DNA from: Candidatus Eiseniibacteriota bacterium
GTDB lineage: Bacteria > Eisenbacteria > RBG-16-71-46
NCBI GenBank assembly: GCA_035691845.1
Contig: DASSIN010000061.1
Location: 2,950-66,949 of the forward strand
Length of the DNA: 64,000 nt
Direction: 5' to 3'
The notes below the pieces were generated by a model, which did not search any database, was not told where the DNA came from, and saw only the letters and a list, made by a program, of their open reading frames with translations. The translations under genes and the position numbers were made by a program. Position 1 is the stretch's first letter. Every line of letters starts with the position of its first letter. Shown here piece after piece: positions 9,054-35,358 of the stretch.

Positions 9054-9467
9054 CTACGCCTCGGCGGTGTAATTGGCCTCGAGCCAGTACGCGCGCACGC
9101 GCTCGATCAGCTCGCGCAATTCGCGCTCGTTCCCGGGCCGCGGCACCACGCTGTTGACGCCGGCGTCGTACAGCTCGCCGACCCGGTCCTGATCGCGGTC
9201 GGTGGCGAGCGCGACCAGCGGCGTGCGCCGCAGGCGGTCGTCGGAGCGCAGCGCCGCCGCGATCTCCGCCGCGCCGGCATCCGTCGCGACGTCGAGGATC
9301 ACCACGGCCGGAACGACATCGAGCTGGTCCATGCAGCGCAGCAACCCCTCGACCGCACGCGCCGGCGGCGCGCCGCTGACGGACGGCAGCATCTCGCTCC
9401 CGAGCACGGTGCTGTCCAACCCGTCGCGGGAACTCGTAATCAGAAAAGGCCTGGCGCCGATCGACAT
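9054..9467 (-). CDS. Response-regulator receiver-like domain protein (atypical, N-terminally truncated)
   Basis: VVILDVATDAGAAEIAAALRSDD....PLVALATDRD....YDAGVNSVVPRP matches the central and C-terminal receiver pattern (D...T...K-like). The acidic DD pocket is not evident. The upstream part of the track ORF (9054..9866) is the translation of the tRNA-derived repeat. Confidence 0.45.
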   Translation of the reverse strand: MSIGARPFLITSSRDGLDSTVLGSEMLPSVSGAPPARAVEGLLRCMDQLDVVPAVVILDVATDAGAAEIAAALRSDDRLRRTPLVALATDRDQDRVGELYDAGVNSVVPRPGNERELRELIERVRAYWLEANYTAEA

Positions 9468-9655: not shown

Positions 9656-9715
9656 GACAACATGCCGGGAGCAGGAGTCGAACCTGCACGGGGTTTCCCC
9701 CGACGGATTTTAAGT
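9656..9715. repeat. 60-bp direct repeat (att-left), equal to the 3' part of tRNA-Leu from the anticodon loop to the 3' end
   Basis: The sequence GACAACATGCCGGGAGCAGGAGTCGAACCTGCACGGGGTTTCCCCCGACGGATTTTAAGT is identical to 17455-17514. Sequence 5' of it on the minus strand diverges, so this is a partial tRNA copy. Confidence 0.85.
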
Positions 9716-9886
9716 TCCAGTGACGCCAAAGAACCACCGGATACCACCGGGCACTAGTGGCCACAACCGCCCGAGACCGCAACGTCCAACACGCGCGCCG
9801 CGTGACGCTCGCGACTGGCGCTGTCCGATGCTCTCGCCACGCAGACCGCCACACAGACCGCCACACGGGCGCGCCAAGGCTCGCTA

Positions 9887-10444
9887 ATGATTTCGGATCG
9901 ATCTAACCGCCTGCAGAGCTTCTTCGGCGTGGACACGGTCGAGCCCACGGTCTCCATCCTGGGCGATCCGGACGGCGCGAACGCCGAGGCAAACGGGCAT
10001 CGCGTGACCTGGACCCGATGCAACTACGGCGGACGCCGCGCGTGGCTCGTGTGCCCTCACTGCGGCCGCAGGTGCGTGGATCTGTACGGTGACGTCTGTT
10101 GGTGCCGTCGCTGCCTGAGCATCGGCTACTGGTCGCAGCTGCGCGCGAACTGGATCGAGCGACGCCGGTGGAAAGCCGAAGGCATTCGCGTGCGGCTGGG
10201 TGGAGCGCCGGATCTGTCGCACGGGTTCCCGCTACGCCCACGAGGCATGCACCGAAGCGCCTATGCCGAACTTCGGAGACAGGGGTTGGCTCTTGAGAAG
10301 ATCGTGTCGGACGTGGAGTGGGTCCGCTTCGAGCTTGAATGCATCCGTGGCCTGCGTGGCATCTTCCCCGAGCGCCGAATGATCCGTGGCTGGCTCGGAC
10401 AGATACGCGCGACGGCCATGAGTGCTGCCCGGGGCGAGATTTGA
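9887..10444 (+). CDS. Hypothetical zinc-finger protein (island cargo)
   Basis: CPHCGRRC...CWCRRC forms a C4 zinc-ribbon-like cluster. No recognisable family. Confidence 0.35.
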   Translation: MISDRSNRLQSFFGVDTVEPTVSILGDPDGANAEANGHRVTWTRCNYGGRRAWLVCPHCGRRCVDLYGDVCWCRRCLSIGYWSQLRANWIERRRWKAEGIRVRLGGAPDLSHGFPLRPRGMHRSAYAELRRQGLALEKIVSDVEWVRFELECIRGLRGIFPERRMIRGWLGQIRATAMSAARGEI

Positions 10445-10718
10445 ATGCAATCCTCGCTCCCGCCCTTGCCCGCAACCACTCGCGCCAACCTCCCAATCCG
10501 CGCGGACATGAGTGTCTGTTTCGCCGTCGGTGCCTAGCGTCAAGATGATCCGGCTGGTTGGGTCGAATGGTTCCGGCACCACTTTGGCACCAAGCCCCCG
10601 CGAAACCGGGTGCTTCTGCATTTTCCAGTTCTCCGACCAGTCTTGCCGCCCAGCTGTGGGCCGGAAAGAGAAGGGGACGGCTCATGGAAGTGAGCCGCCC
10701 CTAGCTATTGCTGCGTGA

Positions 10719-10982
10719 TTACAGCAGCTTCTTGGCGCGAAGGATCTCAACGTACTGGTCGCGCCCAATGTGACAGGCAAGCAGCCCAGAGAGTTGATCC
10801 TCGGTCAGTTTGAGCTGCTGCCGGATGCTGTGCTGCATTGGCAGGTCGCCCTGCTGCTCGGAGCGCCGGGTTCTGGTGATCGTCTTGCCGTCGTGCTCGA
10901 ACCAAGCAAAGAGATGGGCACCCTGCCGAGTCTTGAGTTCGAGCTTTCTGACGATGAGGTCGAACTCGTGCCTCTTGATCAT
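10719..10982 (-). CDS. Possible HicA-like toxin (mRNA interferase fold) of a type II TA pair
   Basis: MIKRHEFDLIVRKLELKTRQGAHLF.WFEHDGKTITRTRRS....DLPMQHSIRQQLKL fits the HicA pattern (K..E...I.KLG....GSH.......G......P.H..DL..G....I.KQ.GL), with GAH in place of GSH. It is the last gene of a three-gene minus-strand operon with a 4-nt gap to the upstream gene. Confidence 0.35.
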   Translation of the reverse strand: MIKRHEFDLIVRKLELKTRQGAHLFAWFEHDGKTITRTRRSEQQGDLPMQHSIRQQLKLTEDQLSGLLACHIGRDQYVEILRAKKLL

Positions 10983-10986
10983 CTAC

Positions 10987-11397
10987 TCAGCGAGGACGCA
11001 CGTGCGCGAGCAAGGCCTGACGGACCACATCGAGGTCGGGCCCAAGCCGGTCCGGCTCTTTGGTCAAAGTGTGGAACAGTTGACCGATGGCGCGCTGCAG
11101 ATCACGAAGTGCAACGCTCCTATCCTCGCCGAAGCCGAACTCATTGAATGCCGGAGCTTCCGCAATGGCGTGCGAACCCTCCGAGGCGAATCGCACGAGG
11201 AAGGGCGTGTAAACGCGAAGCTCAGGATCGAGCAGATGGCCCACGGCGATTTCGTCCACCGTCTTCGGTGGCTTGAGCGCGATTTCGACCGTCTCGACGG
11301 AAGGCCGAAATTCCATCCATGCGCTACGGGTGCGCCCGGACTCTGGCTCTGCTGGCGGGGTCACAACAATGTCGGCTTGAATGGTCATGGCAGTCAT
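10987..11397 (-). CDS. Hypothetical protein (candidate antitoxin or partner of the HicA-like gene)
   Basis: 136 aa with no clear motif. The stop overlaps the upstream gene's start region (11394-11397 overlap), suggesting translational coupling. Confidence 0.35.
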   Translation of the reverse strand: MTAMTIQADIVVTPPAEPESGRTRSAWMEFRPSVETVEIALKPPKTVDEIAVGHLLDPELRVYTPFLVRFASEGSHAIAEAPAFNEFGFGEDRSVALRDLQRAIGQLFHTLTKEPDRLGPDLDVVRQALLAHVRPR

Positions 11398-11855
11398 TCC
11401 TGAGATGTCGAGTCCGGGACCAAGGTAGCGTCGATGAAGGCTTCTCCGATCACCGCGTCGTTCATGAGCACTTGGAACACGTAACGGCCCTCTTCGATCA
11501 ACGGCAGGGGCATCGGAAAAGGCACGAGGAAGTCCGTTGAGCTTAACCGATCCTGGACCATGATGGTGCCAGAGGCTTCGGCGAGCACATTGCCGGACTT
11601 GACCTGAACGAAACGGACAGCCACCCGGTAGTAGCCGACCGCGTCCGCGATCTTGCCGTAAACCGTAAGCTGACGGGCAGTTGGGAACTTATGAGCGATC
11701 ACCCGATCGAAAATGCCAATGAGCGACTTCTTGCCGCTGACCGGCTCGGTCGCGGCTACGTCGCAGACTAGGGCGGCCACCAAGAACGGAAGTACCTGGC
11801 TTTCCCGTCGGCGTTCGTCGCTCATGCGCCCCTTTCGTGGACCCTCAGTCTTCAA
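11394..11855 (-). CDS. Hypothetical protein (island cargo, first gene of the three-gene operon)
   Basis: 153-aa ORF with no recognisable domain. An alternative start is MSDERR, 10 codons in. Confidence 0.35.
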   Translation of the reverse strand: MKTEGPRKGRMSDERRRESQVLPFLVAALVCDVAATEPVSGKKSLIGIFDRVIAHKFPTARQLTVYGKIADAVGYYRVAVRFVQVKSGNVLAEASGTIMVQDRLSSTDFLVPFPMPLPLIEEGRYVFQVLMNDAVIGEAFIDATLVPDSTSQE

Positions 11856-12012
11856 GGCGTCTAAGCATAAGGTACGCCTACGCTACCCGCAACGGCGGAG
11901 TCCCCTGCACCTGCGGGCAGCCCATCGCAAGCTCAAGGCACATGCCCCGATGCCGGCACCGATGCCGGCACGCTCGACGCAAAGCCGCCGGCAGGCGGCT
12001 TTGGACGAGGCC

Positions 12013-12085
12013 CGGCGATCGAGTCGCGGTGCCAAAGCACAATTCCTGGTTGCGTTCGGAAGCGTGCTCAATCGCGGCGCCACAA
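12013..12085 (+). pseudogene. ~75-bp remnant of a DUF3987-like gene 5' region (frameshifted fragment)
   Basis: Near-identical to 14548-14616 inside the intact DUF3987-like gene (GATCGAGTCGCGGTGC..CACAATTCCTGGT.GCGTTCGGAAGCGTGCTCAATCGCGGC). It encodes ..AQFLVAFGSVLNRG.. but with a +2 indel relative to the intact copy. Confidence 0.6.
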
Positions 12086-12111
12086 GCGACCCACCCCTGT
12101 GGGTGACTCCC

Positions 12112-12504
12112 CTACTTCGCGGTCCCCGAGCTGTCCGGGACGAGGATCGCAATTCCACTAGCGCGGACCGCCGGGATGTTCGGGCGGCCGTTCAGGGATG
12201 CCGCGTGATAGCCCTCGAACGACACACTTACGATGCCGTTCCCGCCCAGCTTGCGGGCCTCTTCTTTCAGAAGAGGCAGTACGTCGTCCTCGTTCACGCT
12301 ACTGAAAGCGGTTGCGCCACGCTTCGACGCGCGCACGCGGCCCAGCTCCTTAGCGCCAGGCGGCTCAGTTGAATAGAGCGTCACCGGCGATCCGGCTGGT
12401 CGCGGGGCCAATTCAAGGCCGTTCATCCTGATCGAGTTGGTCGAAGTTGTGGCGCACCCGCAGCAGACCAAGAGCGTCAGGGCGATGGTGAGGGAACGAT
12501 TCAT
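12112..12504 (-). CDS. Lipoprotein (island cargo)
   Basis: MNRSLTIALTLLVCCGC with lipobox L-V-C-C-G-C. 130 aa. Confidence 0.45.
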   Translation of the reverse strand: MNRSLTIALTLLVCCGCATTSTNSIRMNGLELAPRPAGSPVTLYSTEPPGAKELGRVRASKRGATAFSSVNEDDVLPLLKEEARKLGGNGIVSVSFEGYHAASLNGRPNIPAVRASGIAILVPDSSGTAK

Positions 12505-12588
12505 GGCGGCCTCCTATCGAACTCGGGAACAACGGTCAACGGCGCTACTTCTCATTCCGCACGAAGAGACGAGGCGGGCAGGGTGAAG

Positions 12589-12849
12589 CTACTTTGACCC
12601 CTTGCTCCCGAAATCCACGGTCGGAAGCCCGGTCCACATGTTGCCGAGCAGCGTCGGCGAGGTCACTTGAAAGTCGCTGCGATAGTATATGTCGCCCGCT
12701 TCGGTCACGACATAGACTCGGTCGCCCTGAATCGCAACCCCAGCGATCGGGTGTCCGACCGAAGCCGAGGCCGAACGGGTGCCGAGGTGGTAAGCGGCGG
12801 CGATGGCCAAGATCGCGAGCGCGACGTTTCTCGCCGTGGACGAACGCAT
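12589..12849 (-). CDS. Small secreted protein (island cargo)
   Basis: N-terminal signal-peptide-like segment VALAILAIAAAYHLG. 86 aa. Confidence 0.35.
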   Translation of the reverse strand: MRSSTARNVALAILAIAAAYHLGTRSASASVGHPIAGVAIQGDRVYVVTEAGDIYYRSDFQVTSPTLLGNMWTGLPTVDFGSKGSK

Positions 12850-12903
12850 GCGGCCTCCGGGTATGGGTGAGGAGGATGGATCCGGACAACGGCAGCCATG
12901 ACC

Positions 12904-13839
12904 TTACTTCCGTTTGCCTCTCTTGCCGAGCACCCGAGCGCGCGTTGGCGAAGTTCGGAGCCTCCGTTGCCTTGCCCTGTAGTCCCGGGCCACCTGTGCG
13001 TCTCTTGCGCGACGACAGGCCTCTCTCTGGCACCACGTTCGCTGCCCTGGCGCGGGTTGCCGCGAAGGCTGAAACATGGTCCCGCATGATGCACAGATCG
13101 CTAGAGGCCCACCCAACGCGGACAGCAGCTGTGCGGCCAGGGCACTCCTCAGGCCGGAGTAGGCAAAGGCGATCCTCCTGCCGTCCTCAATCCATGAGAG
13201 AGCCAGCCTAACGCCACTTCCCACGACCCAGCCGTTCAGCTGCCACGCTAACAGCCGCCGTTTCTCTTGGAGTGGCACCTGGGCCGATGGGGCCACAAGG
13301 AACTCGCCAACCCTGCCAATGTGCTCGGCGTGGAACGGGGGAATCCTCTCCCCTGTTGTCAGACACTTCGCTGCCACAAAGAGGGAGCGGACCTGCCGGG
13401 CGAGGATTAGCCACTCTTCGACGGGCTCGAAGTAGACCCCTCCGGACTCCGCCGGGGATCCTTCCGGCCATCCCGGCCAGCATGGAGTGCATCCGGGACA
13501 CGCGGCCAGAGCTACCCCATGCTGACAGATCCCGAGAGGGCCAAGACTGGTTGCCAGCCGCTCAACGGCGCGGTGCTGAAACCTGGCCGAAGCTAGCCCC
13601 ATGAAGTCGGCTAGGAGAGTGCGCGGAGGCGAAACCTCCCTCACGGGCTCTCCTTCCTGATAGAGAACCCTCGATTCATCTACCCGAAGGCCCTGAGGAA
13701 TCATTAGGCGAACCGCCGCGTAGCTCGGGAGCACGTCGGCGAAAGGAACTCCGCTTCCGAAGTCGCTGATGCCGGATCTGAGGATCGTCATACCGGCATC
13801 ATATCGGAATCCTGTCCAGAACGGGGCTCCTTCTTCCAC
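12904..13839 (-). CDS. Hypothetical protein with a Cys-rich C-terminus (island cargo)
   Basis: 311 aa. The C-terminal CASCG...WCQREAC cluster is followed by an R/K-rich tail, suggesting a zinc-binding, nucleic-acid-binding end. No family assigned. Confidence 0.4.
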   Translation of the reverse strand: MEEGAPFWTGFRYDAGMTILRSGISDFGSGVPFADVLPSYAAVRLMIPQGLRVDESRVLYQEGEPVREVSPPRTLLADFMGLASARFQHRAVERLATSLGPLGICQHGVALAACPGCTPCWPGWPEGSPAESGGVYFEPVEEWLILARQVRSLFVAAKCLTTGERIPPFHAEHIGRVGEFLVAPSAQVPLQEKRRLLAWQLNGWVVGSGVRLALSWIEDGRRIAFAYSGLRSALAAQLLSALGGPLAICASCGTMFQPSRQPAPGQRTWCQREACRRARDAQVARDYRARQRRLRTSPTRARVLGKRGKRK

Positions 13840-13892
13840 TCTGCCCCCGTCGCGTCCGGAGATGTCCTTCGGCGCATTCGGGGGGTTCGAGC

Positions 13893-14111
13893 ATGGACAG
13901 GCTCCTGTTGAGGCCCGGAGAGGTGGCGGTCCTCCTGGGAATCGGAAGATCGACCGCCTACCAGCTGATTGCCCAGAGGGTCATCCCGTCGGTCAAGATC
14001 GGCAAGAGGATCAGGGTCTCCCCTGCGGCCCTAGATGACTGGATTGCCAAGAACGCACAACGGCCCCGCCAACCGGGAGCGGTACGGCAGTCCTCGCGGG
14101 GGCGGTCATGA
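13893..14111 (+). CDS. AlpA/Xis-family helix-turn-helix DNA-binding protein (excisionase-like)
   Basis: LLRPGEVAVLLGIGRSTAYQLIAQRVIPSVKIGKRIRVSPAALDDWI is the canonical phage AlpA/excisionase HTH pattern. Confidence 0.6.
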   Translation: MDRLLLRPGEVAVLLGIGRSTAYQLIAQRVIPSVKIGKRIRVSPAALDDWIAKNAQRPRQPGAVRQSSRGRS

Positions 14112-14350
14112 GCCCGCGACCCCTCGAAGACCTCGCCGGCCGTCCTGCCTATCCCGACGAGCGATACTTCCACACCGATCTGCCAGAACTTGAAGTGGAT
14201 GACATGCGCATTGAGCGGGAGTGCCGCCGACTCGCCGCTCTTCAAGCGGCGCTGCAAGGGCATCGGGTGCCACCATGGATCCTCGAACGCATCGAGTGCA
14301 TTGACGACGAACTCCGCCGCCGCGGCTGCGAGGTGAGTCGTGGACAGTGA
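14108..14350 (+). CDS. Hypothetical protein
   Basis: 80-aa ORF overlapping the upstream stop by 4 nt. No motif. Confidence 0.3.
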   Translation: MSPRPLEDLAGRPAYPDERYFHTDLPELEVDDMRIERECRRLAALQAALQGHRVPPWILERIECIDDELRRRGCEVSRGQ

Positions 14351-15818
14351 GAGCCGGCTCGCACGCTGCCTCTTGCCCGAAATTGGACCGGAAACCAAAC
14401 CCCGGAGCTTGGCCCACAAGCCACACGTTTCCGCTCCGGGCCACACGCCAGAAGGCGCGGAGTCGTGGCCTGAGCCTCCAAGTGCGGCAGCATTTCACGG
14501 GCTGGCGGGCGAGCTGGTGGCGATGCTCGATCCACACACGGAGGCCGATCGAGTCGCGGTGCTCGCACAATTCCTGGTCGCGTTCGGAAGCGTGCTCAAT
14601 CGCGGCCCGCATTGCGTCGTGGAGTCCGACGTTCACGCATGCAATCTGTTCCTGGCGCTGGTGGGCGAGTCGTCCAGGGCAAGGAAGGGCACGAGCTGGG
14701 GCCATATTCGAAGGCTCTTTCGTTTGGTCGATGACGCGTGGGAAGCGTCAAGAGTTGCGACCGGCTTGTCCTCGGGCGAGGGGCTGATTTGGGCCGTGCG
14801 CGACCCTATTGAGAAGCAGCAGCCGATCAAGCAGAGCGGGCGGGTCACAGGCTATGAGCCGCTGATCGTGGACGCGGGCGAAACCGACAAGCGTCTCCTC
14901 GTCATCGAGTCCGAGTTCAGCTCCGCGCTCAAGGTGATGGGCAGGGATGGCAACACCCTCTCACCCATCATCCGTGCCGCCTGGGACACGGACAACCTTC
15001 GCTCCCTCACCAAGAACAGCCCTGCTCACGCGGTGGGCGCGCACATCTCCCTCATCGGCCACATTACCCGCCAGGAGCTTCGGCGCGATCTGACCGCAAC
15101 CGACATGGCCAACGGCTTCGGCAACCGCTTCCTTTGGCTGGCTGTGCGGCGCTCGAAGGCGCTGCCAGAGGGCGGCCACCTGGACGAGTCGCAGTTCAAG
15201 GCCTTCGCCGGTCGCGTCGCCACCGTCGTGGCACGCGCACGGCAAGTCCGCGAGATGCTGCGTGATGAGCAAGCCAGAGAGCTTTGGGCGGACGCATACC
15301 TTCAACTCTCGGAAGGCCGCCCCGGGCTACTCGGCGCAGTCACGTCACGTGCCGAGGCCCAGGTTACCCGGCTCTCGCTCATCTACGCCTTGCTGGACCA
15401 GTCGCCGGCGATCGGGGTCCGTCACCTACGACCTGCGTTGGCCCTGTGGGACTACTGCGACCGTTCGGCGCGTCACATCTTTGGCGAAGCCGCCGAGGAG
15501 AGCCAGGAGGACAGCGATCGTCGGACACTGATCGAGGTCATTGAAGGCCGCGGGGGTTCAGTGACTGCGGCGGAACTGGCGAAGTCTGGCCCTCGCCGGC
15601 TCCGCGGCAACAGCGACGCTGCCGACCTCGCGCTTCAGGAGCTCGCGGGGTTGGGCCTCGGCACATGGCAGGACGTGCCCCCCGGGCCGGGAGGCGGACG
15701 GCCCACAAGACAGTTCTGCCTCACGCCGGATAGCGGAGCGGATTCGAAACGCGTGAGTTCGGCGGTCGATTCAGGGGTTAAGTTTCCGCTCCGTCAGATT
15801 GGGGGCGGCCGTGGCTAG
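14340..15818 (+). CDS. DUF3987-like protein (mobile-element replication/primase-associated family)
   Basis: 492 aa. The central region (LIVDAGETDKRLLVIESEFSSALKV...RLSLIYALLD) resembles DUF3987 proteins, which are encoded next to integrases and primases in islands and satellites. The family assignment is from memory and not searched. Confidence 0.45.
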   Translation: MDSESRLARCLLPEIGPETKPRSLAHKPHVSAPGHTPEGAESWPEPPSAAAFHGLAGELVAMLDPHTEADRVAVLAQFLVAFGSVLNRGPHCVVESDVHACNLFLALVGESSRARKGTSWGHIRRLFRLVDDAWEASRVATGLSSGEGLIWAVRDPIEKQQPIKQSGRVTGYEPLIVDAGETDKRLLVIESEFSSALKVMGRDGNTLSPIIRAAWDTDNLRSLTKNSPAHAVGAHISLIGHITRQELRRDLTATDMANGFGNRFLWLAVRRSKALPEGGHLDESQFKAFAGRVATVVARARQVREMLRDEQARELWADAYLQLSEGRPGLLGAVTSRAEAQVTRLSLIYALLDQSPAIGVRHLRPALALWDYCDRSARHIFGEAAEESQEDSDRRTLIEVIEGRGGSVTAAELAKSGPRRLRGNSDAADLALQELAGLGLGTWQDVPPGPGGGRPTRQFCLTPDSGADSKRVSSAVDSGVKFPLRQIGGGRG

Positions 15819-16143
15819 TCGCGGAAGCAACCTACAGGACCTGCTAGCCGCAGTGGACGATGTTCCGCGCCAAGCAGTCCCTGCGCTCCTCGTGCGGCTG
15901 GCAGCCCGCATGGCCGAACCGTCGGTCGAATCCGATTCTACGCCCCCACCGTCGGCAGACGGCGCCAATCAGGACGGGCAGCTCCTTTCGGTGGCCGAAG
16001 TGGCTGCAAGACTCGGCGTCACCAAACGATGGGTCTACCGTCACGCTGGAACGTGGGCGTTCACGCGCAGGCTCGGGCATCGCACCCTGCGGTTCGAGCG
16101 GCGCGGATTCGAGAAGCTCCTTCAGGCCCGCCCGAGGCTGTGA
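15799..16143 (+). CDS. HTH_17/excisionase-type DNA-binding protein
   Basis: LLSVAEVAARLGVTKRWVYRHAGTWAFTRRLGHRTLRFERRGFEKLL is a MerR-like excisionase HTH. The true start may be internal. Confidence 0.5.
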   Translation: MGAAVASRGSNLQDLLAAVDDVPRQAVPALLVRLAARMAEPSVESDSTPPPSADGANQDGQLLSVAEVAARLGVTKRWVYRHAGTWAFTRRLGHRTLRFERRGFEKLLQARPRL

Positions 16144-16156
16144 TATCATACATCCC

Positions 16157-16336
16157 ATGAAGCGGCCGGTGCGGGTCAGGGTCGAGTCACTGCGGGGCAC
16201 GGTTCCCCTCGTGGTGCGGCTCCCTTCGGCCCTGCATCGCGCGTTGCTTGCGGAGAAGAAGCGTACTGGACGTACCGTGAACCTGATTGTCCGAACGGCC
16301 CTGGAGGCGCGATTGGCGCGGAGGAAGCAGCAGTGA
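16157..16336 (+). CDS. Ribbon-helix-helix (Arc/CopG-like) small protein
   Basis: MKRPVRVRVESLRGTVPLVVRLPSALHRALLAEKKRTGRTVNLIVRTALEARL is an RHH pattern. The stop overlaps the integrase GTG start. Confidence 0.4.
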   Translation: MKRPVRVRVESLRGTVPLVVRLPSALHRALLAEKKRTGRTVNLIVRTALEARLARRKQQ

Positions 16337-17553
16337 GCGCAGAGCGTGGGGTTTACCCGCGACAGAAGAAGGACGGCTCGCTGGTGTGGTGGATCGTCTA
16401 TCACCACCGCGGCCAGCGGTTCCGTGAGAGTAGCCACAGCGCGAACCCGGAGGTTGCTCGGCGGCTGCGCCAGAAGCGTCTGACAGCGCTGGAGCGCGGC
16501 ATCAACGGGCGCGACGCGGACCGGATGCGGTTCGATGCCCTCTCGGCGCTGCTCATCGCGGATTACAAGGTCCGTCAGCGGAAGTCCCTCGATCGCGCCA
16601 AGCTATCCCTCTCCCACCTACGCCGGCACTTCGGCAACTGCCGCGTGAGCGCCATCACCCCGAGCGCCATCAAAGCCTACGTGTCCGAGCGGCTGGAGAC
16701 GGCGAAGCCCGCGAGCGTCCAGCTCGAATGCGCCGCCCTGAAGCGGGCCTTCAATCTCGCCGTGAAGGATGGGCTCCTCGCCACCCGCCCCGCATTCCCG
16801 ACGATCGCGGTTCACAACGTGCGAACCGGATTCCTGGAGCAGGCGCAGCTTCAGGCGGTGCTCGACAACCTCGGTCCCGAGGTTCAGCCGGTGGTGCGAT
16901 TCGCGTCGCTGACCGGCTGGCGCAAGAGTGAGGTGCTCGGTCTCCAGTGGCGGCAGGTCGATTTCGGCGCCGGTGTCGTCCGGCTGGATGTCGGAGCGAC
17001 CAAGAACGGCGAGGGCCGGGTTTTTCCGTTCGCTGCGCTGCCGGAGTTGGATGAGCTTCTGAATGCGCAGCGTGAGCGCACGTCAGCCGTTGAGCGCCAC
17101 CGTGGGCAGGTTATCCCCCACGTGTTCCACCGGCGGGATGGTGGCCCCATCCTGTCGCTCGATCACGCGTGGGCGAGCGCCTGCCGGCGCGCTGGCGTAC
17201 CCGGGCGGCTATTCCACGACCTGCGCCGCACGGCCGTGCGTTCGTTCGAGCGCGCCGGGGTGCCACGCGCCGTGGCTATGCGGCTCTCCGGGCACAAGAC
17301 CGAGGCCATCTACCGGCGCTATGCGATCGTGTCGGAGTCGGACTTGGCGGAAGGTGTCCAGCGGCTCGCCCAGGCGCGTACCGCCACGCAGACCGCCACA
17401 CGGACGGTTCGTGCCGCAGCGGGCGGTTTGGACGAATCCCACAACTCATTGCAGGACAACATGCCGGGAGCAGGAGTCGAACCTGCACGGGGTTTCCCCC
17501 GACGGATTTTAAGTCCGTCGCGTCTGCCATTCCGCCATCCCGGCATCGACTGA
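16333..17553 (+). CDS. Tyrosine site-specific integrase (phage integrase family)
   Basis: N-terminal SAM-like domain; catalytic region R...HDLRRT...HKTEAIYRRY (R, HxxR, Y). The 3' end overlaps the tRNA-Leu/att sequence. Confidence 0.85.
   Translation: MSAERGVYPRQKKDGSLVWWIVYHHRGQRFRESSHSANPEVARRLRQKRLTALERGINGRDADRMRFDALSALLIADYKVRQRKSLDRAKLSLSHLRRHFGNCRVSAITPSAIKAYVSERLETAKPASVQLECAALKRAFNLAVKDGLLATRPAFPTIAVHNVRTGFLEQAQLQAVLDNLGPEVQPVVRFASLTGWRKSEVLGLQWRQVDFGAGVVRLDVGATKNGEGRVFPFAALPELDELLNAQRERTSAVERHRGQVIPHVFHRRDGGPILSLDHAWASACRRAGVPGRLFHDLRRTAVRSFERAGVPRAVAMRLSGHKTEAIYRRYAIVSESDLAEGVQRLAQARTATQTATRTVRAAAGGLDESHNSLQDNMPGAGVEPARGFPRRILSPSRLPFRHPGID
17455..17514. repeat. 60-bp direct repeat (att-right) lying within the intact tRNA-Leu 3' half
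   Basis: Identical to 9656-9715. Confidence 0.85.
17462..17544 (-). tRNA. tRNA-Leu (anticodon UAA), type II with long variable arm
   Basis: The reverse complement reads GCCGGGATGGCGGAATGGCAGACGCGACGGACTTAAAATCCGTCGGGGGAAACCCCGTGCAGGTTCGACTCCTGCTCCCGGCA. There is a 7-bp acceptor stem, an anticodon loop CTTAAAA and a T-arm GGTTCGACTCC. CCA is not encoded. Confidence 0.85.
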
Positions 17554-17612
17554 AATACGAACGCCCGGGGGGTGCGCCCGGGCGTCGTCTCGCGTTGAGT
17601 CTGTCGCGGCGG

Positions 17613-18881
17613 CTAGTGCCCGTGCGCGCCCTCGCCGGCTAACACGTCGGTCACGCGCACGGCGGGCCAGCGCGCGAAGAAGCCGCTGACGGCGAACCCG
17701 AACATGCCGAGGAAGCCCAGCATCACGCCGATCTCGGGCAGACCGATCCACAGGTGGTTGGGGCTGAACGACGGCATCACCAGCAGGTGACGCTCGAGCC
17801 ACATGCCGGCCATGATCACCACCGCGAACGCGGTGAGCCACACCGGGCTCTTCTTCGTGTACATGTTCATCAGCCCGAGGAACGGCAGCGCGAACACCAT
17901 GATGAACACCGCGAACGCGATCGGGCGCCACGGCTGCTCGAACCGCAGGAACACCCACCAGCTCTCGTCGGGGATGTTGGCGTACCAGATCACCAGGTAC
18001 TGGGCCCAGAACTCGTACACCCAGAAGATGCTGAACCCGAAGATCAGCTTGCCGATGTCCCAGAAGTGGTTGGGCGTGATCCACGCCTCGAGGCCGCGGC
18101 GCGCGCGCAGCTGCACGGCGATGAACGCGGTCATGCAGATGCCGTTCAGGTACGCGCCCATGAACACCCACCAGCCGAACAGGCCGCTGGCCCAGCTCGG
18201 CGACAGCGCCATGATGAAGTCCCACGCGAACACGGTGAACACGAACGCGAACGCCACCACGATCTGCGGCGACAGCATGGCGAGCTGGTTGCGCTCGAGC
18301 GTGGCCTCGGCGTCGTCGCCGCGCCAGTTGGCGGCCAGCTTCTCGTAGTGCGGGCGCAGCTCGGGGGCGACGTGGTCGCGCAGCAGCCACGCGTCGCGGC
18401 GCAGCGACACGCGCACGAGCCTGGTGATCAGCCACCACAGCAGGCCGAACCCGGCCAGCGTGCGCACCCACAGGAACGGCACGTTCAGGTACGGGCGCTG
18501 GCGCTCGAGCACGTGGTGCGTCCACGGCAGGTAGGTCCAGATGCCGGCGATCAGCATCACCAGCAGCGCGCCGAGCCCGTACGGCAGGTAGCTCGACAGC
18601 CCCTCGGCGATGCGCGTCACCGGGCCCGCCCAGCGGCCGTTTCCGAGCCGGATCGAGCATGCCAGCACGGCGGCGCCGATCGACACGCCCTCGAAGAACA
18701 CCATGTTGGCGCCGAACGTGCCCCACGCGCGCACCGGCTCCTTCCACAGCAGGAACACGAACGACAGCACGCCCACCGCCATCAGCGCGAACCACAACAG
18801 GCGGCGCGTGGGATTCTGGCGGCCGGGAATGCGGCGCGCGATGTCGGCCAGCACGGCCGTGCGGGCGGCGTCGGCGGTCAT
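17613..18881 (-). CDS. actF: Alternative complex III subunit ActF (NrfD-like membrane subunit)
   Basis: Polytopic membrane protein homologous to ActC. The ATG at 18879-18881 overlaps the actE stop (ATGA). Confidence 0.75.
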   Translation of the reverse strand: MTADAARTAVLADIARRIPGRQNPTRRLLWFALMAVGVLSFVFLLWKEPVRAWGTFGANMVFFEGVSIGAAVLACSIRLGNGRWAGPVTRIAEGLSSYLPYGLGALLVMLIAGIWTYLPWTHHVLERQRPYLNVPFLWVRTLAGFGLLWWLITRLVRVSLRRDAWLLRDHVAPELRPHYEKLAANWRGDDAEATLERNQLAMLSPQIVVAFAFVFTVFAWDFIMALSPSWASGLFGWWVFMGAYLNGICMTAFIAVQLRARRGLEAWITPNHFWDIGKLIFGFSIFWVYEFWAQYLVIWYANIPDESWWVFLRFEQPWRPIAFAVFIMVFALPFLGLMNMYTKKSPVWLTAFAVVIMAGMWLERHLLVMPSFSPNHLWIGLPEIGVMLGFLGMFGFAVSGFFARWPAVRVTDVLAGEGAHGH

Positions 18882-19450
18882 CGGGGGTTCGCCTGCTGCT
18901 GCTGGCGCAGGAAATGGATCAGGTCCCACGCCTCGGCCGCGGTCACCTGCGCGCCGTAGGACGGCATGATCGCCCCGCCGTGCCGGATGTAGGAGTAGAT
19001 CCAGCCGTCCTTCAGCCCGCGCGTGTGGGCGCCCTGCAGGTCGGGCGGCGGAATGAAGAACTGCGCCACCGGGCCGTTGCCCGCCAGCGAGGCGCCGTGG
19101 CAGGGGACGCACGTCTTCGCGAACTTGATGCGCCCGCGCTCCACCGAGGCGGCGCGGTCGGCGGCGGCGGTGCGGTCCACCATCGAGTCGGACATCGCCG
19201 TGCGCTGCTCGGGCGTCAGGTCGGTGCCGGCCAGCGGGCGCTCGATGCCTTCGATCGGCACGCTGGTGGAATCGGGCGCGCGCTCGATCACCTTCTGCGG
19301 CATGATCGCCACGCTCGAGCGCATGTCGCGCTTGTCGAAGTAGGTCAGGTGCACCCACGACTGCGTCACGTCGCGGCAGCCCTGCCGTGCCGAGTACCCG
19401 GCGAAGATCGCGATCGTGCCGATGCCAACCCAGCCGAGCAGCTTAAGCAT
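18878..19450 (-). CDS. actE: Alternative complex III subunit ActE (monoheme cytochrome c)
   Basis: Single CVPCH heme-binding motif, N-terminal TM anchor, ~190 aa. Confidence 0.75.
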   Translation of the reverse strand: MLKLLGWVGIGTIAIFAGYSARQGCRDVTQSWVHLTYFDKRDMRSSVAIMPQKVIERAPDSTSVPIEGIERPLAGTDLTPEQRTAMSDSMVDRTAAADRAASVERGRIKFAKTCVPCHGASLAGNGPVAQFFIPPPDLQGAHTRGLKDGWIYSYIRHGGAIMPSYGAQVTAAEAWDLIHFLRQQQQANPR

Positions 19451-19991
19451 GGACCGCCACCTCTTCCGCGCCCGCGCCGCGCAACAGGCCCTCCGCGCGC
19501 GCGGCGGCGTCGCCGGTGGCCGGCACCCAGATGCCGATCCGGTCCTCGCTGAAGCGCGGATCGTACGGCGCCTTGCTGCGCACCTGCGGCAGCCGGCCCA
19601 ACGCCAGCATGCCGATCAGGTTGAACACGCCGCCGAGCAGGATCATCGACTCGTATGCGATGGTGACGAACGGCGGGATCGACACCAGCTCCTTGCCGGC
19701 CGTGATCAGCGGCCACGACAGCACCGAGTAGATGCACAGCGCGAATCCGCCGGTGAGCCCGCACGCGCCGCCGACGAAACACACCCAGCGCACCAGCGAC
19801 GGGCCCTGCTCCATCGCGCGCTCCAGGTCGTGGAACGGCACCGGCGAGAACACGCTGATGCCGCGCATCCCCGACTGGCGCAGCGCGTCGATCGCGTCCT
19901 TGGCGTCGTCCACGTACACGAAGATGCCCATCACGCCGCGGTACTCGGGCGCGGGCGGCAGGAACGGCCGAAGCAGCGCCGGGGCCTTCAT
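19443..19991 (-). CDS. actD: Alternative complex III subunit ActD (small membrane subunit)
   Basis: ~180 aa with two hydrophobic segments, sitting between actC and actE as in canonical ACIII operons. The start overlaps the actC stop. Confidence 0.65.
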   Translation of the reverse strand: MKAPALLRPFLPPAPEYRGVMGIFVYVDDAKDAIDALRQSGMRGISVFSPVPFHDLERAMEQGPSLVRWVCFVGGACGLTGGFALCIYSVLSWPLITAGKELVSIPPFVTIAYESMILLGGVFNLIGMLALGRLPQVRSKAPYDPRFSEDRIGIWVPATGDAAARAEGLLRGAGAEEVAVHA

Positions 19992-21403
19992 GCGCGCCTC
20001 CGGCGGCGGAACGGCGCCGGCAGCGTCTCCTTGATCTCCGCCACCGAGATCGCCGGCAGCGTGCGCACGAAGATCAGGAAGAACATGAAGAACCACGCGA
20101 ACGCGCCCATGGTGATGGCGAACTCGGTCCACGACATCTTGTAGTTGACCGCCCAGCTGTAGGGCTCGAACGGCCGCGCCAGCGACGTCACGATGATCAC
20201 GAACCGCTCGAACCACATGCCGACGTTCACGAACAGGCACAGCACGAACATCACGGCCATGTTGCGGCGCACCTGCTTGAACCACATCAGCAGCGGCAGG
20301 AACACGTTGCAGGTGATCATGATCCACGTGGCCCACCAGAAGTGGCCGAAGTAGCGGTAGAAGAACGTCTCGCGTTCGTAGCTGCTGGGGCCGTACCAGG
20401 CGATGAAGATCTCGCACAGGTACGAGTAGCCGACGATGGTGGAGGTGAGCAGCACCAGCTTGCCCAGCTTCTCCATGTGGTCGAGCGTGATGACGTGCTC
20501 GAGCCGGAACGCCTTGCGGATCACGACCAGCAGGTTGATGACGAGCGCGACGCCGGAGAAGATCGCGCCGGCCACGAAGTACGGCGCGAAGATGGTCGAG
20601 TGCCACCCCGGCACCTGCGCCATGGCGAAGTCCCACGACACCACCGAGTGCACCGACAGCACCAGCGGCGTGCACAGCGCGGCGAAGTACAGGTACGCGC
20701 CGTAGAAGTGCTTCCACTGCGTGTTGCCGCCGGTCCAGCCGAACGACAGCACGGTGTAGGTGGCCTTGAGGATCTTGTTCTTCACCTGATCGCGCGCCAC
20801 GGCGATGTCGGGGATCAGCCCCACTAGGAAGAAGATGCTGGACAGCGTCAGGTAGGTGGACACCGCGAACACGTCCCACTCCAGCGGCGAGCGGAAGTTG
20901 GGCCACAGCTGGCGCTGATTGGGGTACGGCACCAGCCAGTACGCGAACCACGGGCGCCCGGTGTGCAGGATCGGGAACAGTCCGGCGGTGAGCACGCCGA
21001 ACACCGTCATCGCCTCGGCCACGCGGTACACGGCGCGGCGGAAGTGCGAGCGGAACAGGAACAGGATCGCCGACACCAGCGTGCCGCAGTGCGCGATGCC
21101 GACCCAGAACACGAAGTTGGTGATGTACGCGGCCCACATCACCGGCCGTGTGTAACCGGCCACGCCCAGGCCCAGCACGATCTGGTTGCGCAGGCAGATG
21201 CCGCCCGTCAGCAGCACCGCCAGGTCGAAGATGAACGCCGCCCACCACACCGGCCCGGGCGTGCTGATCATCCGCATCATGTCGCGGTTGATGGACGCGA
21301 ACGTCACCGGCGGACGCGGCTCGGACGAGCGCTCGGCGTCGTGCGACTCGCGCTCCACCTCCATCGCCGGCGGGGTGGTGAAGTCGTCCGGGCGGTCGGT
21401 CAT
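19988..21403 (-). CDS. actC: Alternative complex III subunit ActC (NrfD/PsrC-like quinol-interacting membrane subunit)
   Basis: 471 aa and about 10 TM helices. The start ATG (21401-21403) overlaps the actB stop. Confidence 0.8.
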   Translation of the reverse strand: MTDRPDDFTTPPAMEVERESHDAERSSEPRPPVTFASINRDMMRMISTPGPVWWAAFIFDLAVLLTGGICLRNQIVLGLGVAGYTRPVMWAAYITNFVFWVGIAHCGTLVSAILFLFRSHFRRAVYRVAEAMTVFGVLTAGLFPILHTGRPWFAYWLVPYPNQRQLWPNFRSPLEWDVFAVSTYLTLSSIFFLVGLIPDIAVARDQVKNKILKATYTVLSFGWTGGNTQWKHFYGAYLYFAALCTPLVLSVHSVVSWDFAMAQVPGWHSTIFAPYFVAGAIFSGVALVINLLVVIRKAFRLEHVITLDHMEKLGKLVLLTSTIVGYSYLCEIFIAWYGPSSYERETFFYRYFGHFWWATWIMITCNVFLPLLMWFKQVRRNMAVMFVLCLFVNVGMWFERFVIIVTSLARPFEPYSWAVNYKMSWTEFAITMGAFAWFFMFFLIFVRTLPAISVAEIKETLPAPFRRRRRA

Positions 21404-30593: not shown

Positions 30594-33563
30594 ATGCGCA
30601 GCGCGATCCATGTCGTGTTGCTGGCGTGCGGCGCGCTGCTGCCCGCGGCCGCCCTGGCGGCCGGCGGCTTCCAGGAGATCGACGCCCCGGGTGTCAGGCT
30701 CATCTACCCCGCGCCGCTGCTCTCCTACCTCGCCCCCTACACCGCGCGCTGCTTCGAGAACGCCTACCGGTTCCACACGCGCTACTGGGGCTACGCGCCG
30801 TGGGACCGCGTCAACCTGATCCTGGACGACGCCGGCGACTACGGGAACGCCGGCGTCACGGCGAGCCCGCGCAACACCATGGTGGTGCACATCGCGCCGT
30901 CCAACTTCGTGTACGAGACGGGCCCCAGCAACGAGCGCATCAACTTCACCATGAACCACGAGATGACGCACGTGGTGGCGCTCGATCAGGCGAGCGGCTC
31001 CGACCGGCTGTTCCGGCGGCTGTTCCTGGGCAAGGTGCGCGAGACCGACGAGCACCCGGAGTCGATCCTGTACGGCTACCTGACCGTGCCGCGCCGCGCC
31101 GCGCCGCGCTGGTACCACGAGGGGATCGCGGTGTTCTGCGAGACGTGGATGGCGGGCGGCATCGGCCGCGCGCAGGGGCCGTACGACGAGATGGTGTTCC
31201 GCGCGATGGTGCGCGACTCGGCGCAGTTCTGGGATCCGCTCGGGCTCGAGTCCGAGGGCACGCGCGTGGACTTCCAGGTGGGCGTCAACTCCTACCTGTA
31301 CGGCACGCGCTTCATGGACTACCTGGCGTACCGCTACGGCCCCGACACGCTGCGCGCGTGGATCTCGCGCCAGCCCGGGAGCCGCAAGTACTTCTCGGCC
31401 CAGTTCCGCCACGTGTTCGGACGCTCGCTCGAGGACGTGTGGCACGACTGGGCCGCGTTCGAGCGCGACTTCCAGCATGCGAACCTCGATTCCATTCGCC
31501 GCTACCCGGTGACGCCGGCGCGCGACCTGTCGCGCGAGGCGCTGGGCTCGGTGTCGCGGGCGTACGTGGACTCCGCGCGGCGCGTGGTGTACGTGGCCGT
31601 GCAGGGACGCGGCTCGCTCGCGCACGTGGCGGCGATTCCATTGGACGGCGGGCCCTCCCGCACGCTGGCCGAGGTGAAGGGGCCGGCGCTCTACTTCGTG
31701 TGCGCGCTGGCGTGGGATCCCGATCGGCGCATGCTCTACTACACCGCCGACAACAACGACTGGCGCGACCTGATGAGCCTCGATCCCGCCACCGGCCGCA
31801 CGCGCCGGCTGATCCGGCAGGCGCGGATCGGCGACCTCGCGTTCGATCGCGCGGACAGGAGCCTGTGGGGCGTGCGCCACTTCAACGGTTACTCGACCGT
31901 GGTGCGGCTCGCGCCGCCCTACCGCGACTGGCACCAGGTGTGGACGCTCCCCTACGGGCGCGACCTGTACGACCTCGACATCTCGCCCGACGGGCGCTGG
32001 CTGTCGGCCTCGATGGCGGAGATCAGCGGGCGGCAGAGCCTGCGGCTCTACGATCTGGCGCGGCTCGCGGCCGGCGACACCAGCGCGCGCGAGCTGCACG
32101 ACTTCGGCGCCTCGATCCCGACCGGGTTCGTGTTCACGCCCGACGGCCGCGCGCTGTACGGCACCTCCTACTACACCGGCGTTTCCAACGTGTGGCGCTA
32201 CGACCTGGCGTCGGACTCGCTCGACATCGTGAGCAACGCCGAGACCGGGCTGTTCCGCCCGGTGCCGCTGGGCGGCGATTCCCTGCTGGCGTTCCGCTAC
32301 ACCGGCCAGGGGTTCGTGCCGGCGACGATCGCGGCGCGCCCGCTGCAGGACGTGAGCGCGGTCAGCTTCCTCGGCGCCGAGCTGGTGGAGCGCAGGCCCG
32401 AGCTCAAGAGCTGGAAGGTGCCATCGCCCGCGCACGTCGCGCTCGACTCCACCGCCACGCCGCACCCCTATCGCCCGCTCGCCAGCGTGCGGCCGGTCAA
32501 CGTGTATCCGGTGTTCGAGCGCTACAAGGCCTCGGACGGCGGCGGGCTGCGCGCCAGCTTCGCCGATCCGCTCGGGTTCCATCAGCTGGACGTGAGCGCC
32601 ACGTGGACGGGCGCCCAGGAGCTGCCGTCGGACCAGCGCTGGCACCTGGCGGCCGAGTACCGCCACGCCGGCTGGACCGCGAAGCTGCGCCGCGATCCGG
32701 CCTCGTTCTACGACCTGTTCGGGCCCGTGAAGACCAGCCGGCGCGGCAACAACGCCAGCCTGGCGTGGACCCGCACGCTGATCCGCGACACGCCGCGCAC
32801 GCTGGAGCTGGCCGCGTCCGCCAGCGGCTGGACCGGGCTCGAGCGGCTGCCCGACGCACAGAACGTGGCCACGCTGGCGGGGTTCGACAAGCTGGTGGCG
32901 AGCGAGGCCAGCCTGACGTGGAAGAACCTGCGCTCCTCGATCGGCGCCGCCGACTACGAGAAGGGCCAGATCGCGCGCGTCACGCTGTCGGCCAACACCG
33001 TGCGCCGCGTGCCCACGATCGGCGATGCGCGCTGGCGCACGTTCCCGATCGCCGAGGCGGCGCTCGACCTGGGCCAGCCGCTGCCCGTGCGCAACAGCTC
33101 GCTGTGGCTGCGCACCGCCATCGGCGGCGGCAACGGCGATCCGGCCGAGCCGTTCGCCACCACGTTCTTCGGCGGGTTCGGCAACAACGTGGTGGACCAC
33201 GCCGAGCCCAAACGCTTCCGCGACGTCACGAGCCTGCCCGGGTTCGAGATCGACCAGGTGGCGGGCCGCACCTACGGCCGCGCGCAGCTCGAGCTGAACC
33301 TGCCGCCGCTGCGCTTCGAGCGCGCCGGCGTGGTGCCGTTCTACGCCACCTGGGCGCGGCTGGCGCTGTTCACGACCGCGCTCGCCACCGATCCCGACCG
33401 CCCGGCCGAGCGCGCCCGCTACGGCGACGTGGGCGCGCAGGTGGACGTGCGCTTCCAGCTCCTGACCCAGCAGCCGCTGACGCTGTCGTTCGGGTTCGCG
33501 CGCGCCACGCAGCGCCACGGCCCGGGGCGCGACCAGGGCATGATCTCGCTCAAGATCCTGTGA
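30594..33563 (+). CDS. Secreted ~990-aa protein with a gluzincin-like HExxH...E motif and TolB-like beta-propeller repeats
   Basis: Signal peptide MRSAIHVVLLACGALLPAAALAAG. NHEMTHVV followed about 50 aa later by HEGIAVFCE. Repeats DISPDGRWLS and FTPDGRALYGTSY indicate propeller blades. The C-terminus is rich in beta-strand-like alternating residues. Confidence 0.5.
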   Translation: MRSAIHVVLLACGALLPAAALAAGGFQEIDAPGVRLIYPAPLLSYLAPYTARCFENAYRFHTRYWGYAPWDRVNLILDDAGDYGNAGVTASPRNTMVVHIAPSNFVYETGPSNERINFTMNHEMTHVVALDQASGSDRLFRRLFLGKVRETDEHPESILYGYLTVPRRAAPRWYHEGIAVFCETWMAGGIGRAQGPYDEMVFRAMVRDSAQFWDPLGLESEGTRVDFQVGVNSYLYGTRFMDYLAYRYGPDTLRAWISRQPGSRKYFSAQFRHVFGRSLEDVWHDWAAFERDFQHANLDSIRRYPVTPARDLSREALGSVSRAYVDSARRVVYVAVQGRGSLAHVAAIPLDGGPSRTLAEVKGPALYFVCALAWDPDRRMLYYTADNNDWRDLMSLDPATGRTRRLIRQARIGDLAFDRADRSLWGVRHFNGYSTVVRLAPPYRDWHQVWTLPYGRDLYDLDISPDGRWLSASMAEISGRQSLRLYDLARLAAGDTSARELHDFGASIPTGFVFTPDGRALYGTSYYTGVSNVWRYDLASDSLDIVSNAETGLFRPVPLGGDSLLAFRYTGQGFVPATIAARPLQDVSAVSFLGAELVERRPELKSWKVPSPAHVALDSTATPHPYRPLASVRPVNVYPVFERYKASDGGGLRASFADPLGFHQLDVSATWTGAQELPSDQRWHLAAEYRHAGWTAKLRRDPASFYDLFGPVKTSRRGNNASLAWTRTLIRDTPRTLELAASASGWTGLERLPDAQNVATLAGFDKLVASEASLTWKNLRSSIGAADYEKGQIARVTLSANTVRRVPTIGDARWRTFPIAEAALDLGQPLPVRNSSLWLRTAIGGGNGDPAEPFATTFFGGFGNNVVDHAEPKRFRDVTSLPGFEIDQVAGRTYGRAQLELNLPPLRFERAGVVPFYATWARLALFTTALATDPDRPAERARYGDVGAQVDVRFQLLTQQPLTLSFGFARATQRHGPGRDQGMISLKIL

Positions 33564-34612: not shown

Positions 34613-34657
34613 CACAGCGCGTAGGGAAGCCCCGGGGGATTCACGTCCCGGGCTCCC

Positions 34658-35344: not shown

Positions 35345-35358
35345 CCCGCTCCTCCTGC

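Follow-up and report, generated by a model that had tools for sequence, protein, structure and literature searches.

Two 60-bp direct repeats in the 64-kb stretch of Candidatus Eisenbacteria DNA analysed here (the window) enclose a 7.8 kb segment (interior 9716–17454) that is very probably a site-specific integrative element, or genomic island, inserted into tRNA-Leu(UAA). The repeats, at 9656–9715 and 17455–17514, agree at 60 of 60 positions, as the original prediction for this locus had it, and are flanked by mismatches directly outside on both sides; between 8.5 and 19 kb, the longest direct repeat is a 75-nt family, of which 60 nt match exactly. Chance cannot account for a perfect 60-mer repeat within 64 kb. 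ARAGORN calls a sole tRNA in the window, tRNA-Leu(UAA) (17461–17545, minus strand), immediately downstream of actF. Rfam places it at 17462–17544 (83 nt, 60.7 bits versus a gathering score of 29), and its fold, at −43.5 kcal/mol (z −4.0), is a class II cloverleaf.

The right repeat, or attR core, comprises the 3′ 54 nt of this tRNA and 6 nt beyond its 3′ end. The 83-nt tRNA was thus correctly predicted to be intact, but the repeat does not lie wholly inside it. Read in tRNA orientation, the shared block begins with the final base pair of the anticodon stem, takes in the anticodon loop, variable arm, T arm and 3′ strand of the acceptor, and extends 6 nt beyond the discriminator. The left repeat, or attL core, is a displaced 54-nt 3′ fragment of tRNA-Leu(UAA) with the same 6 nt appended. 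Together with its flank it receives no ARAGORN tRNA call, has only a sub-threshold tRNA-Sec match in Rfam (29 bits versus 47) and folds no better than shuffles (z −0.34), in agreement with its earlier description as a non-folding tRNA 3′ half.

We compared the site with that of relatives, as the original prediction had proposed. A scan of GTDB species representatives with ActF returned relatives of 55–66% identity, in which the ActF to tRNA-Leu(UAA) linkage is kept in 13 of 14 Eisenbacteria-type loci; their downstream synteny is not kept and no empty site was obtained. Closer relatives (ActF 74–85% identical, not of the same species) came from an ActF protein search followed by gene-context comparison. 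In L108 (GCA_037024475.1, ActF 74%), ActF is followed by tRNA-Leu(UAA), 340 nt, a response-regulator homologue, a Zn-ribbon gene and PBP; its DNA alignment to the window breaks off at 17462, a single base within the tRNA 3′ end, and picks up again at 9232. L022 (ActF 76%) has ActF, tRNA-Leu, the Zn-ribbon gene and PBP, with no response regulator. L018 and L019 (ActF 85%) have ActF, tRNA-Leu, ~100 nt, a CxxCxxCC gene that is not in the window, a response regulator (60% identical), the Zn-ribbon gene and PBP, and have neither the 7.8 kb island nor a second copy of the core. Because the flanking genes are adjacent in L108, L022 and L018/L019, the 7.8 kb segment is an insertion; an exact attB did not emerge from these genomes, which belong to other species.

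The ~100 nt that follow tRNA-Leu in L018 (L018:2770–2870; also present in L019, L020 and L021) are ~80% identical to window positions 17365–17460. They correspond to the 3′ tail of the integrase gene (int), including a pair of the repeat motifs described below, and translate to a recognisable int-tail peptide, with no integrase gene after it. This stretch looks like the stump of a related element formerly resident in the same tRNA, so the site seems to be recurrently targeted, and such elements seem to decay there. A further ‘int-like’ match past the tRNA in L009 was rejected, as it is mostly antisense tRNA translation and compositional noise.

Three side observations concern this site. The tRNA-Leu of the window and of L018 has no encoded CCA (…CCCGGCA, then TG or CG), and that of L108, L009, L027, L028 and L086 encodes …GGCACCA; the 3′ end of the window tRNA may be a copy supplied by the element. 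The tRNA-Leu(UAA) of L022 (L022:11437–11521) is very unlike those of the window, L018 and L108 in its acceptor, anticodon and T stems, despite syntenic flanks. The response regulator beyond attL (9054–9467, minus strand) is very divergent, with no Pfam match at E ≤ 0.01, weak NCBIfam matches to PleD/PhoB receiver regions and homologues of 34–60% identity in the relatives.

The window is part of a Candidatus Eisenbacteria metagenome-assembled genome (MAG), the helicase and ActF proteins being 100% identical to NCBI entries VFK69_02095 and VFK69_02105 on a contig of 70,629 bp; exact-protein look-ups returned no record for either the integrase or the helicase as called by NCBI. An independent Logan assembly of SRR25158202 holds a 7799-bp contig equal to 9686–17484 (1 mismatch) and a 3097-bp contig identical to 17485–20581. 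Both end exactly 30 nt into a core, as k=31 unitigs must at a 60-bp repeat, and the repeat is therefore real in the reads. The 7799-bp contig (L105) was considered as a circle, its length being that of the repeat spacing, and was rejected as one: it is the 7739-nt interior plus 30 nt of core at each end, a k=31 unitig.

That the Logan contigs break inside the core also bears on a possible assembly artefact, in which a free circle with a 60-bp tRNA match was threaded into the chromosome path; for k < 60, the de Bruijn graphs of an integrated element and of a circle plus an empty site are identical. However, the MAG contig spans both junctions in one piece, and many independent assemblies show integrase relatives inserted beside tRNAs. 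We regard such an artefact as extremely improbable, and it would hardly change the biological conclusion, since a circle carrying 54 nt of host tRNA and a tyrosine integrase would itself be an attP-bearing integrative element.

The integrative element is also set apart by its composition. Its interior has a GC content of 64.6% versus 71.7% for the rest of the window, the lowest among all 7.7 kb intervals, which bears out the lower GC first noted by comparison with the flanks. Tetranucleotide distance from the window background peaks at 0.47 inside the element against a baseline of 0.12–0.18, so that both windowed measures, suggested as a check at the outset, make the interior the most deviant part of the window. 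GC at third codon positions (GC3) is 0.65–0.83 in island genes and 0.92–0.98 in the host genes that flank them on either side. The deviation is greatest at 10–12 kb. Elsewhere, a second and weaker anomaly lies at 33000–36000 (GC about 0.65, tetranucleotide distance 0.29); the long open reading frames (ORFs) tested there gave a single Pfam match, a marginal Beta_helix at 35359–36726 (minus strand).

Abutting the intact tRNA, as predicted, is a lambda-type tyrosine integrase (16333–17553, plus strand; PF00589, E 6.6e-15; PHROG 1, E 3e-50, covering nearly the whole length). The nearest solved structures found by phmmer are those of lambda Int, aligned over residues 75–330, in keeping with a core-binding and catalytic fold. 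The catalytic set is present (R197, K224, H295, R298, H321 and Y327/330), and 121 nt separate the tRNA from the catalytic domain, whose end is near 17340. The remainder of the int ORF (17341–17553) has no stop before the tRNA; it reads through a pair of short repeats, the 60-bp core and the antisense strand of the tRNA. Its predicted C terminus changes on excision, ending …RRILSPSRLPFRHPGID in the integrated state (406 aa) and …RRILSSSDAKEPPDTTGH in the circle (407 aa).

The short repeats share the 13-mer CAGACCGCCACAC; its exact form has only three copies in 64 kb, each next to a core. Two tandem exact copies lie 126 nt inside attL (9842–9866, plus strand), as candidate P′-arm sites. One degenerate (17377) and one exact copy (17389–17401) lie in the int 3′ tail, 53 nt before the attR core (17377–17401, plus strand), as candidate P-arm sites. 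The predicted attP would hence carry one repeat pair on each side of the core, at 53 nt and 126 nt. The integrase has ~74 residues N-terminal to its lambda-aligned part, and these residues, together with the four repeat copies, would fit a heterobivalent integrase with arm-type binding sites.

That tyrosine integrases insert elements into the 3′ ends of tRNA genes is textbook biology, and every classical signature of such insertion is present at this locus, which bears out the interpretation given in the original prediction. Among tRNA-targeting integrases of the lambda/P4 type, Williams reportedly distinguished an anticodon-loop sublocation class in 2002. Like known tRNA-targeting islands, the element has repeats that run from the anticodon stem-loop onward, an intact tRNA regenerated beside int, a foreign composition, no counterpart in relatives and putative arm-type repeats flanking its core. 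Points of difference are its host, from an uncultured candidate phylum, and an int ORF that crosses both the core and the antisense tRNA.

To place the integrase, we collected 80 metagenomic relatives (41–57% identity). A tRNA gene lies 110–460 nt beyond the catalytic domain in 38 of the 80, convergent as in the window in 33 of these 38; many of the remaining contigs end too soon to show a tRNA. Targets of the clade include Leu(UAA), Leu(CAA), Leu(UAG), Ser, Phe, Asp, Val, Gly, Ala, Arg and Lys. One locus, L088:63–9728, is a complete sister element of ~9.6 kb with exact 61-nt tRNA-Leu(CAA) repeats and an integrase of 44% identity; Pfam gave no match for any of its other ORFs. Of 34 loci examined, 22 have an int ORF that ends ahead of the tRNA (11–40 nt before it in 16 of these) and 12 have one that reads into it, so the read-through is a frequent accident of high-GC sequence and not a special device.

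Ahead of int, the element carries a compact gene set. Six plus-strand genes with overlapping or tight junctions fill 13893–17553, in the order HTH_17, c80, helicase, HTH_17, ribbon-helix-helix-like (RHH-like) and int. The first (13893–14111) encodes an HTH_17/AlpA-type excisionase-regulator (PF12728, E 6.2e-15; PF05930, E 9.4e-4; PHROG 66, E 7.4e-10), PHROG 66 being annotated as ‘excisionase and transcriptional regulator’. It is followed by c80 (14108–14350, plus strand; 80 aa), which overlaps its neighbours at both ends, is called in Logan and has no family match in profile searches (Pfam, PHROGs and PADLOC).

The largest backbone gene (14340–15818, plus strand), absent from the original prediction, encodes a protein that homology and a structural model place as a DUF3987-family helicase of superfamily 6, with an MCM-like AAA+ core and a C-terminal winged helix. 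NCBI starts it near 14520 (433 aa). It has 7100 homologues, and most among the matches listed carry PF13148, at 46–69% identity; many of those listed are fused to PrimPol (PF09250), PriCT (PF08708) or zf-CHC2 (PF01807). An AlphaFold2 (AF2) model built from 67 sequences has a mean confidence (pLDDT) of 85.9, with residues 1–36 disordered, and the top 50 Foldseek matches in the PDB are all MCM proteins (E down to 3e-8). Invariant in the 67-sequence alignment are R115, K116, G117, D178, K184, R185 and E192, in keeping with conserved P-loop and acidic motifs. A PriCT-DUF3987 protein has been characterized as a 5′–3′ helicase of superfamily 6 whose activity depends on Walker A and B (PMC11724360).

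Next to int stands a second HTH_17 protein with a C-terminal helix-turn-helix (15799–16143, plus strand; PF12728, E 5.3e-6, at the cut-off; PHROG 66, E 3.6e-5), a candidate recombination directionality factor. The two HTH_17 proteins are not recent paralogues of each other. Between this gene and int is the RHH-like gene (16157–16336, plus strand; 59 aa); its stop and the start of int share 4 nt (GTGA). Its matches are sub-threshold (RHH_1, E 0.052; TraY, 0.049; PSK_trans_fac; E 0.008–0.05 overall). Of the trio originally placed just upstream of int, two Xis/AlpA-type HTH genes and an RHH gene, both HTH_17 assignments hold, but the gene at 13893–14111 heads the operon 2.2 kb away and the RHH assignment stays below threshold.

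The same module order recurs with a different integrase. L023 (L023:2917–5952) has a 62%-identical helicase, a small gene, HTH_17, an integrase and a convergent tRNA-Glu(CUC), its integrase being unrelated to that of the window (28% identity). None of the 80 integrase relatives is accompanied by a DUF3987 helicase of the window type. Thus, the replication and integration modules assort independently and are exchanged between elements.

We propose that the lambda-type integrase recombines the attP of the element with the chromosomal tRNA-Leu(UAA). The attP core would be the 60-bp tRNA copy, which begins at the anticodon stem-loop and extends 6 nt beyond the 3′ end, with the CAGACCGCCACAC arm repeats on either side. 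Recombination would regenerate an intact tRNA at the int-proximal junction and leave the 3′ fragment at the far junction. The rightward operon (13893–17553) would supply excision from the chromosome and copying of the circle; as no primase is encoded, priming would come from the host or a helper. Movement between cells would rely on a helper phage or another mobile element, and the leftward genes would be accessory cargo.

A 53-nt intergenic region separates the operon from this divergent leftward set, which consists on the minus strand of c311, c86, a lipoprotein-like gene, a gap, DUF6941, c136 and c87. The gene nearest the operon, c311 (12904–13839), encodes a 311-aa ORFan that carries a four-Cys ribbon at the C terminus as well as a basic tail. 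Among 5.8 billion proteins it matches only itself (the Logan copy), and it has no plasmid or PDB match; its C terminus gives marginal matches to phrog_10853 (E 0.0017) and PADLOC PprRE (E 1.9e-4). The codon-phase GC signal is weak and the coding status not secure, so that c311 is either a fast-evolving regulator or no gene; that it regulates the element, as its divergent position might hint, is speculation. Downstream, c86 (12589–12849) encodes a small protein with an N-terminal signal-like segment, and a 37%-identical homologue sits just downstream of tRNA-Leu in L010. The next gene (12112–12504) encodes a putative lipoprotein with a signal peptide and, by eye, a Cys-containing lipobox-like motif; it has a weak DUF4156 match (PF13698, E 0.0015, below the cut-off) and matches phrog_27267 (E 6e-4).

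Beyond the gap, a DUF6941 family protein (11394–11855; PF22091, E 1.8e-13, above the curated cut-off) has no phage or plasmid match by tblastn, and a literature search on DUF6941 was empty. The last two leftward genes, c136 (10987–11397; 136 aa, 133 aa in the Logan gene call) and c87 (10719–10982; 87 aa, called in Logan, GC3 0.78), have no match in Pfam, PHROGs, NCBIfam, PADLOC, plasmids or the PDB. Nor was there support in Pfam, NCBIfam, PADLOC, the PDB or plasmids for a HicA/HicB identity of this pair, which was set aside. Just after c87 lies a terminator-like hairpin (10674–10701, minus strand) with an 11-bp stem containing 8 GC pairs. It is a consensus match only, and the number of such sites is not above shuffle expectation. 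A PADLOC scan of the cargo found no defence family save the marginal match of c311.

One cargo gene reads in the other direction. c185 (9887–10444, plus strand), which comes after the rightward operon across attP in the circular form, encodes a four-Cys Zn-ribbon and helical-hairpin protein of a widespread, unnamed, mobile-element-associated family (3657 cluster representatives at E ≤ 1e-3; conserved motif WTxCNYGGxRPWFxCPxCGRR...RPKGMHxxTY). It has no Pfam match, and its AF2 model (pLDDT 85.7) no fold match in the PDB or BFVD. Homologues (L106:8001–8594, L111:2404–2934, L112:2547–3038) include some that follow an HTH_17/AAA_25 module in another island (L106/L107), and others sit on 4.5–5.7 kb Psychrobacter plasmids after an ‘inovirus-type Gp2 protein’ gene. 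The cargo (9887–13839) had been called entirely uncharacterised; c87, c136 and c311 have no detectable relatives, but the DUF6941 gene and c185 each belong to a family.

The gap between the DUF6941 and lipoprotein-like genes holds a non-coding fragment of the helicase gene of ~65 nt (12015–12078, plus strand), a copy of 14543–14606 with a 42-nt core that is 98% identical and a 2-nt indel. On its sequence, the fragment is a recombination scar, perhaps left by an exchange between two related elements. It and the greater compositional departure of the left part suggest a mosaic origin.

This scar raises the question of whether the segment is a decaying, immobile relic that integrated once and is now eroding, its genes no longer forming a working system. 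A helicase without a primase domain, an int ORF that has lost the stop found before the tRNA in 22 of 34 relatives, and the decay at this site in L018, where an int tail of ~100 nt with the arm motif persists and an integrase does not, would all fit such a history. Against this, the two 60-bp cores have not diverged although no selection acts on the attL copy, which argues for recent integration; no operon gene is broken and their junctions are tight or overlapping, Int keeps its catalytic residues, and codon composition has not shifted towards the host. We therefore consider a relic rather doubtful.

Several points nevertheless weigh against an element that excises, replicates and moves. The helicase itself gives no direct Pfam match to PF13148, even at E ≤ 5, and does not have the primase domain borne by its closest homologues; with the gene fragment at 12015–12078, this means that the replication module may be incomplete. 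The 7799-bp contig has the shape required of any k=31 unitig between 60-bp repeats and says nothing on circles. The element was found in one sample and one genomic context only. Finally, 6 of its 13 genes have no detectable family and may hide a transfer or packaging function. Mobility is accordingly a prediction from gene content and site anatomy.

Transfer between cells was addressed by scanning the element with Pfam, PHROGs, NCBIfam and PADLOC, which detected no structural, packaging, relaxase or type IV secretion system (T4SS) family. By Pfam or PHROGs there are none of the genes of phage-inducible chromosomal islands or their capsid-forming kind (PICI/cfPICI; terS, ppi, cpm, capsid and portal), six ORFs being without a family, no P4-like psu, delta, sid, epsilon or alpha primase-helicase, and no prophage structural, terminase or lysis genes. 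The profile scans likewise detected no relaxase, coupling protein or T4SS of integrative conjugative or mobilizable elements (ICE/IME). With no capsid, packaging or conjugation genes detected, between-cell transfer would need a helper.

The helper might be a co-resident conjugative element whose relaxase and T4SS act on an origin of transfer (oriT) in the segment, making it an integrative mobilizable element. The smallest mobilizable islands typically encode no transfer genes, as is the case here, and the c185 family occurs on very small plasmids beside the ‘inovirus-type Gp2’ (HUH-like) gene. Yet no relaxase, coupling protein or oriT-like feature was detected in the segment, the Psychrobacter plasmids with c185 homologues are typed as non-mobilizable, and nothing is known on conjugation in Eisenbacteria. 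This route is highly unlikely.

A helper phage would refine the integrative-element reading further. The phage-inducible chromosomal minimalist islands, or PICMIs, of Vibrionaceae are defined by int, alpA (PF05930/PF12728) and prim (DUF3987/DUF5906), average 6.7 kb, have no capsid genes and are integrated next to fis as a hallmark; their gene up1 lies between alpA and prim, and iolg (‘integrase-overlapping gene’) overlaps int by 4 nt (PMC10803314). In Vibrio, the toolkit of int, AlpA and DUF3987 is experimentally enough for a satellite lifestyle (PMC10803314). The element co-locates the same three defining genes in 7.8 kb, with no capsid or packaging genes detected, a single small gene (c80) in the up1 position, and an RHH-like gene that overlaps int by 4 nt as iolg does; divergent PICMI variants also carry two alpA-type copies. 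It differs in lying in tRNA-Leu and not next to fis, in its Candidatus Eisenbacteria host, in having 13 genes versus about 6, and in its order alpA, up, prim, HTH, RHH and int on one strand.

Similar elements exist beyond Vibrio. The virion-encapsidated integrative mobile elements, or VEIMEs, are capsid-less integrative elements packaged in virions across diverse marine phyla (PMC9618062). The window element resembles them in its small size, tyrosine integrase, AlpA/excisionase, primase/helicase-type replication gene, missing major capsid gene and many genes without homologues; VEIMEs are defined by concatemers in virions, and the habitat of this element is soil. Prokaryotic Argonaute (pAgo) islands with the PrimPol AgaPP and the PriCT-DUF3987 helicase AgaPH (PMC11724360) resemble it in having an integrase and a tRNA at opposite ends, a lower GC content, HTH proteins and a DUF3987 replication helicase. 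The window element is much smaller and has no PrimPol, PriCT or Argonaute.

On this basis, the element could be a PICMI- or VEIME-like minimalist phage satellite, in which a helper phage would induce the AlpA-like gene, followed by excision, replication by the DUF3987 helicase and packaging of concatemers in unmodified helper capsids. Gene content, gene positions and size all point this way, and VEIMEs show that capsid-less elements with int, AlpA and a primase-helicase are common in diverse phyla (PMC9618062). On the other side, no helper is known and the integration site is a tRNA, not fis-adjacent; IMG/VR viral contigs contain no integrase relative and one partial helicase match (118 residues, 47%), and the whole element has no DNA match in 50,697 phage records. 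The core of int, AlpA and DUF3987 also occurs in islands not known as satellites. We hold a satellite lifestyle as a possible refinement, and a tentative one. The stronger proposal, of a working minimalist satellite in a soil candidate phylum whose leftward genes (c311 and DUF6941/c136/c87) serve a new helper-interference or anti-phage function, is unlikely.

As an integrative element in tRNA-Leu(UAA), the segment is an ordinary kind of genomic island, which leaves the general picture unchanged and has local value. It provides a cleanly delimited Eisenbacteria element whose att sites are exact, together with candidate arm sites and a compact operon for excision and replication; a full-text literature search found no paper naming both Eisenbacteria and integrase. 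Two protein families are flagged by it: c185, which travels with the replication modules of small plasmids and islands, and c311, placed where a master regulator would sit. Its PICMI-like minimal core lies outside Vibrionaceae, and the toolkit shared with Vibrio PICMIs makes it a concrete candidate for asking whether capsid-less satellites exist in soil bacteria. Were the element such a satellite, Eisenbacteria would gain their first described mobile element and, indirectly, first evidence of a phage–host–satellite system.

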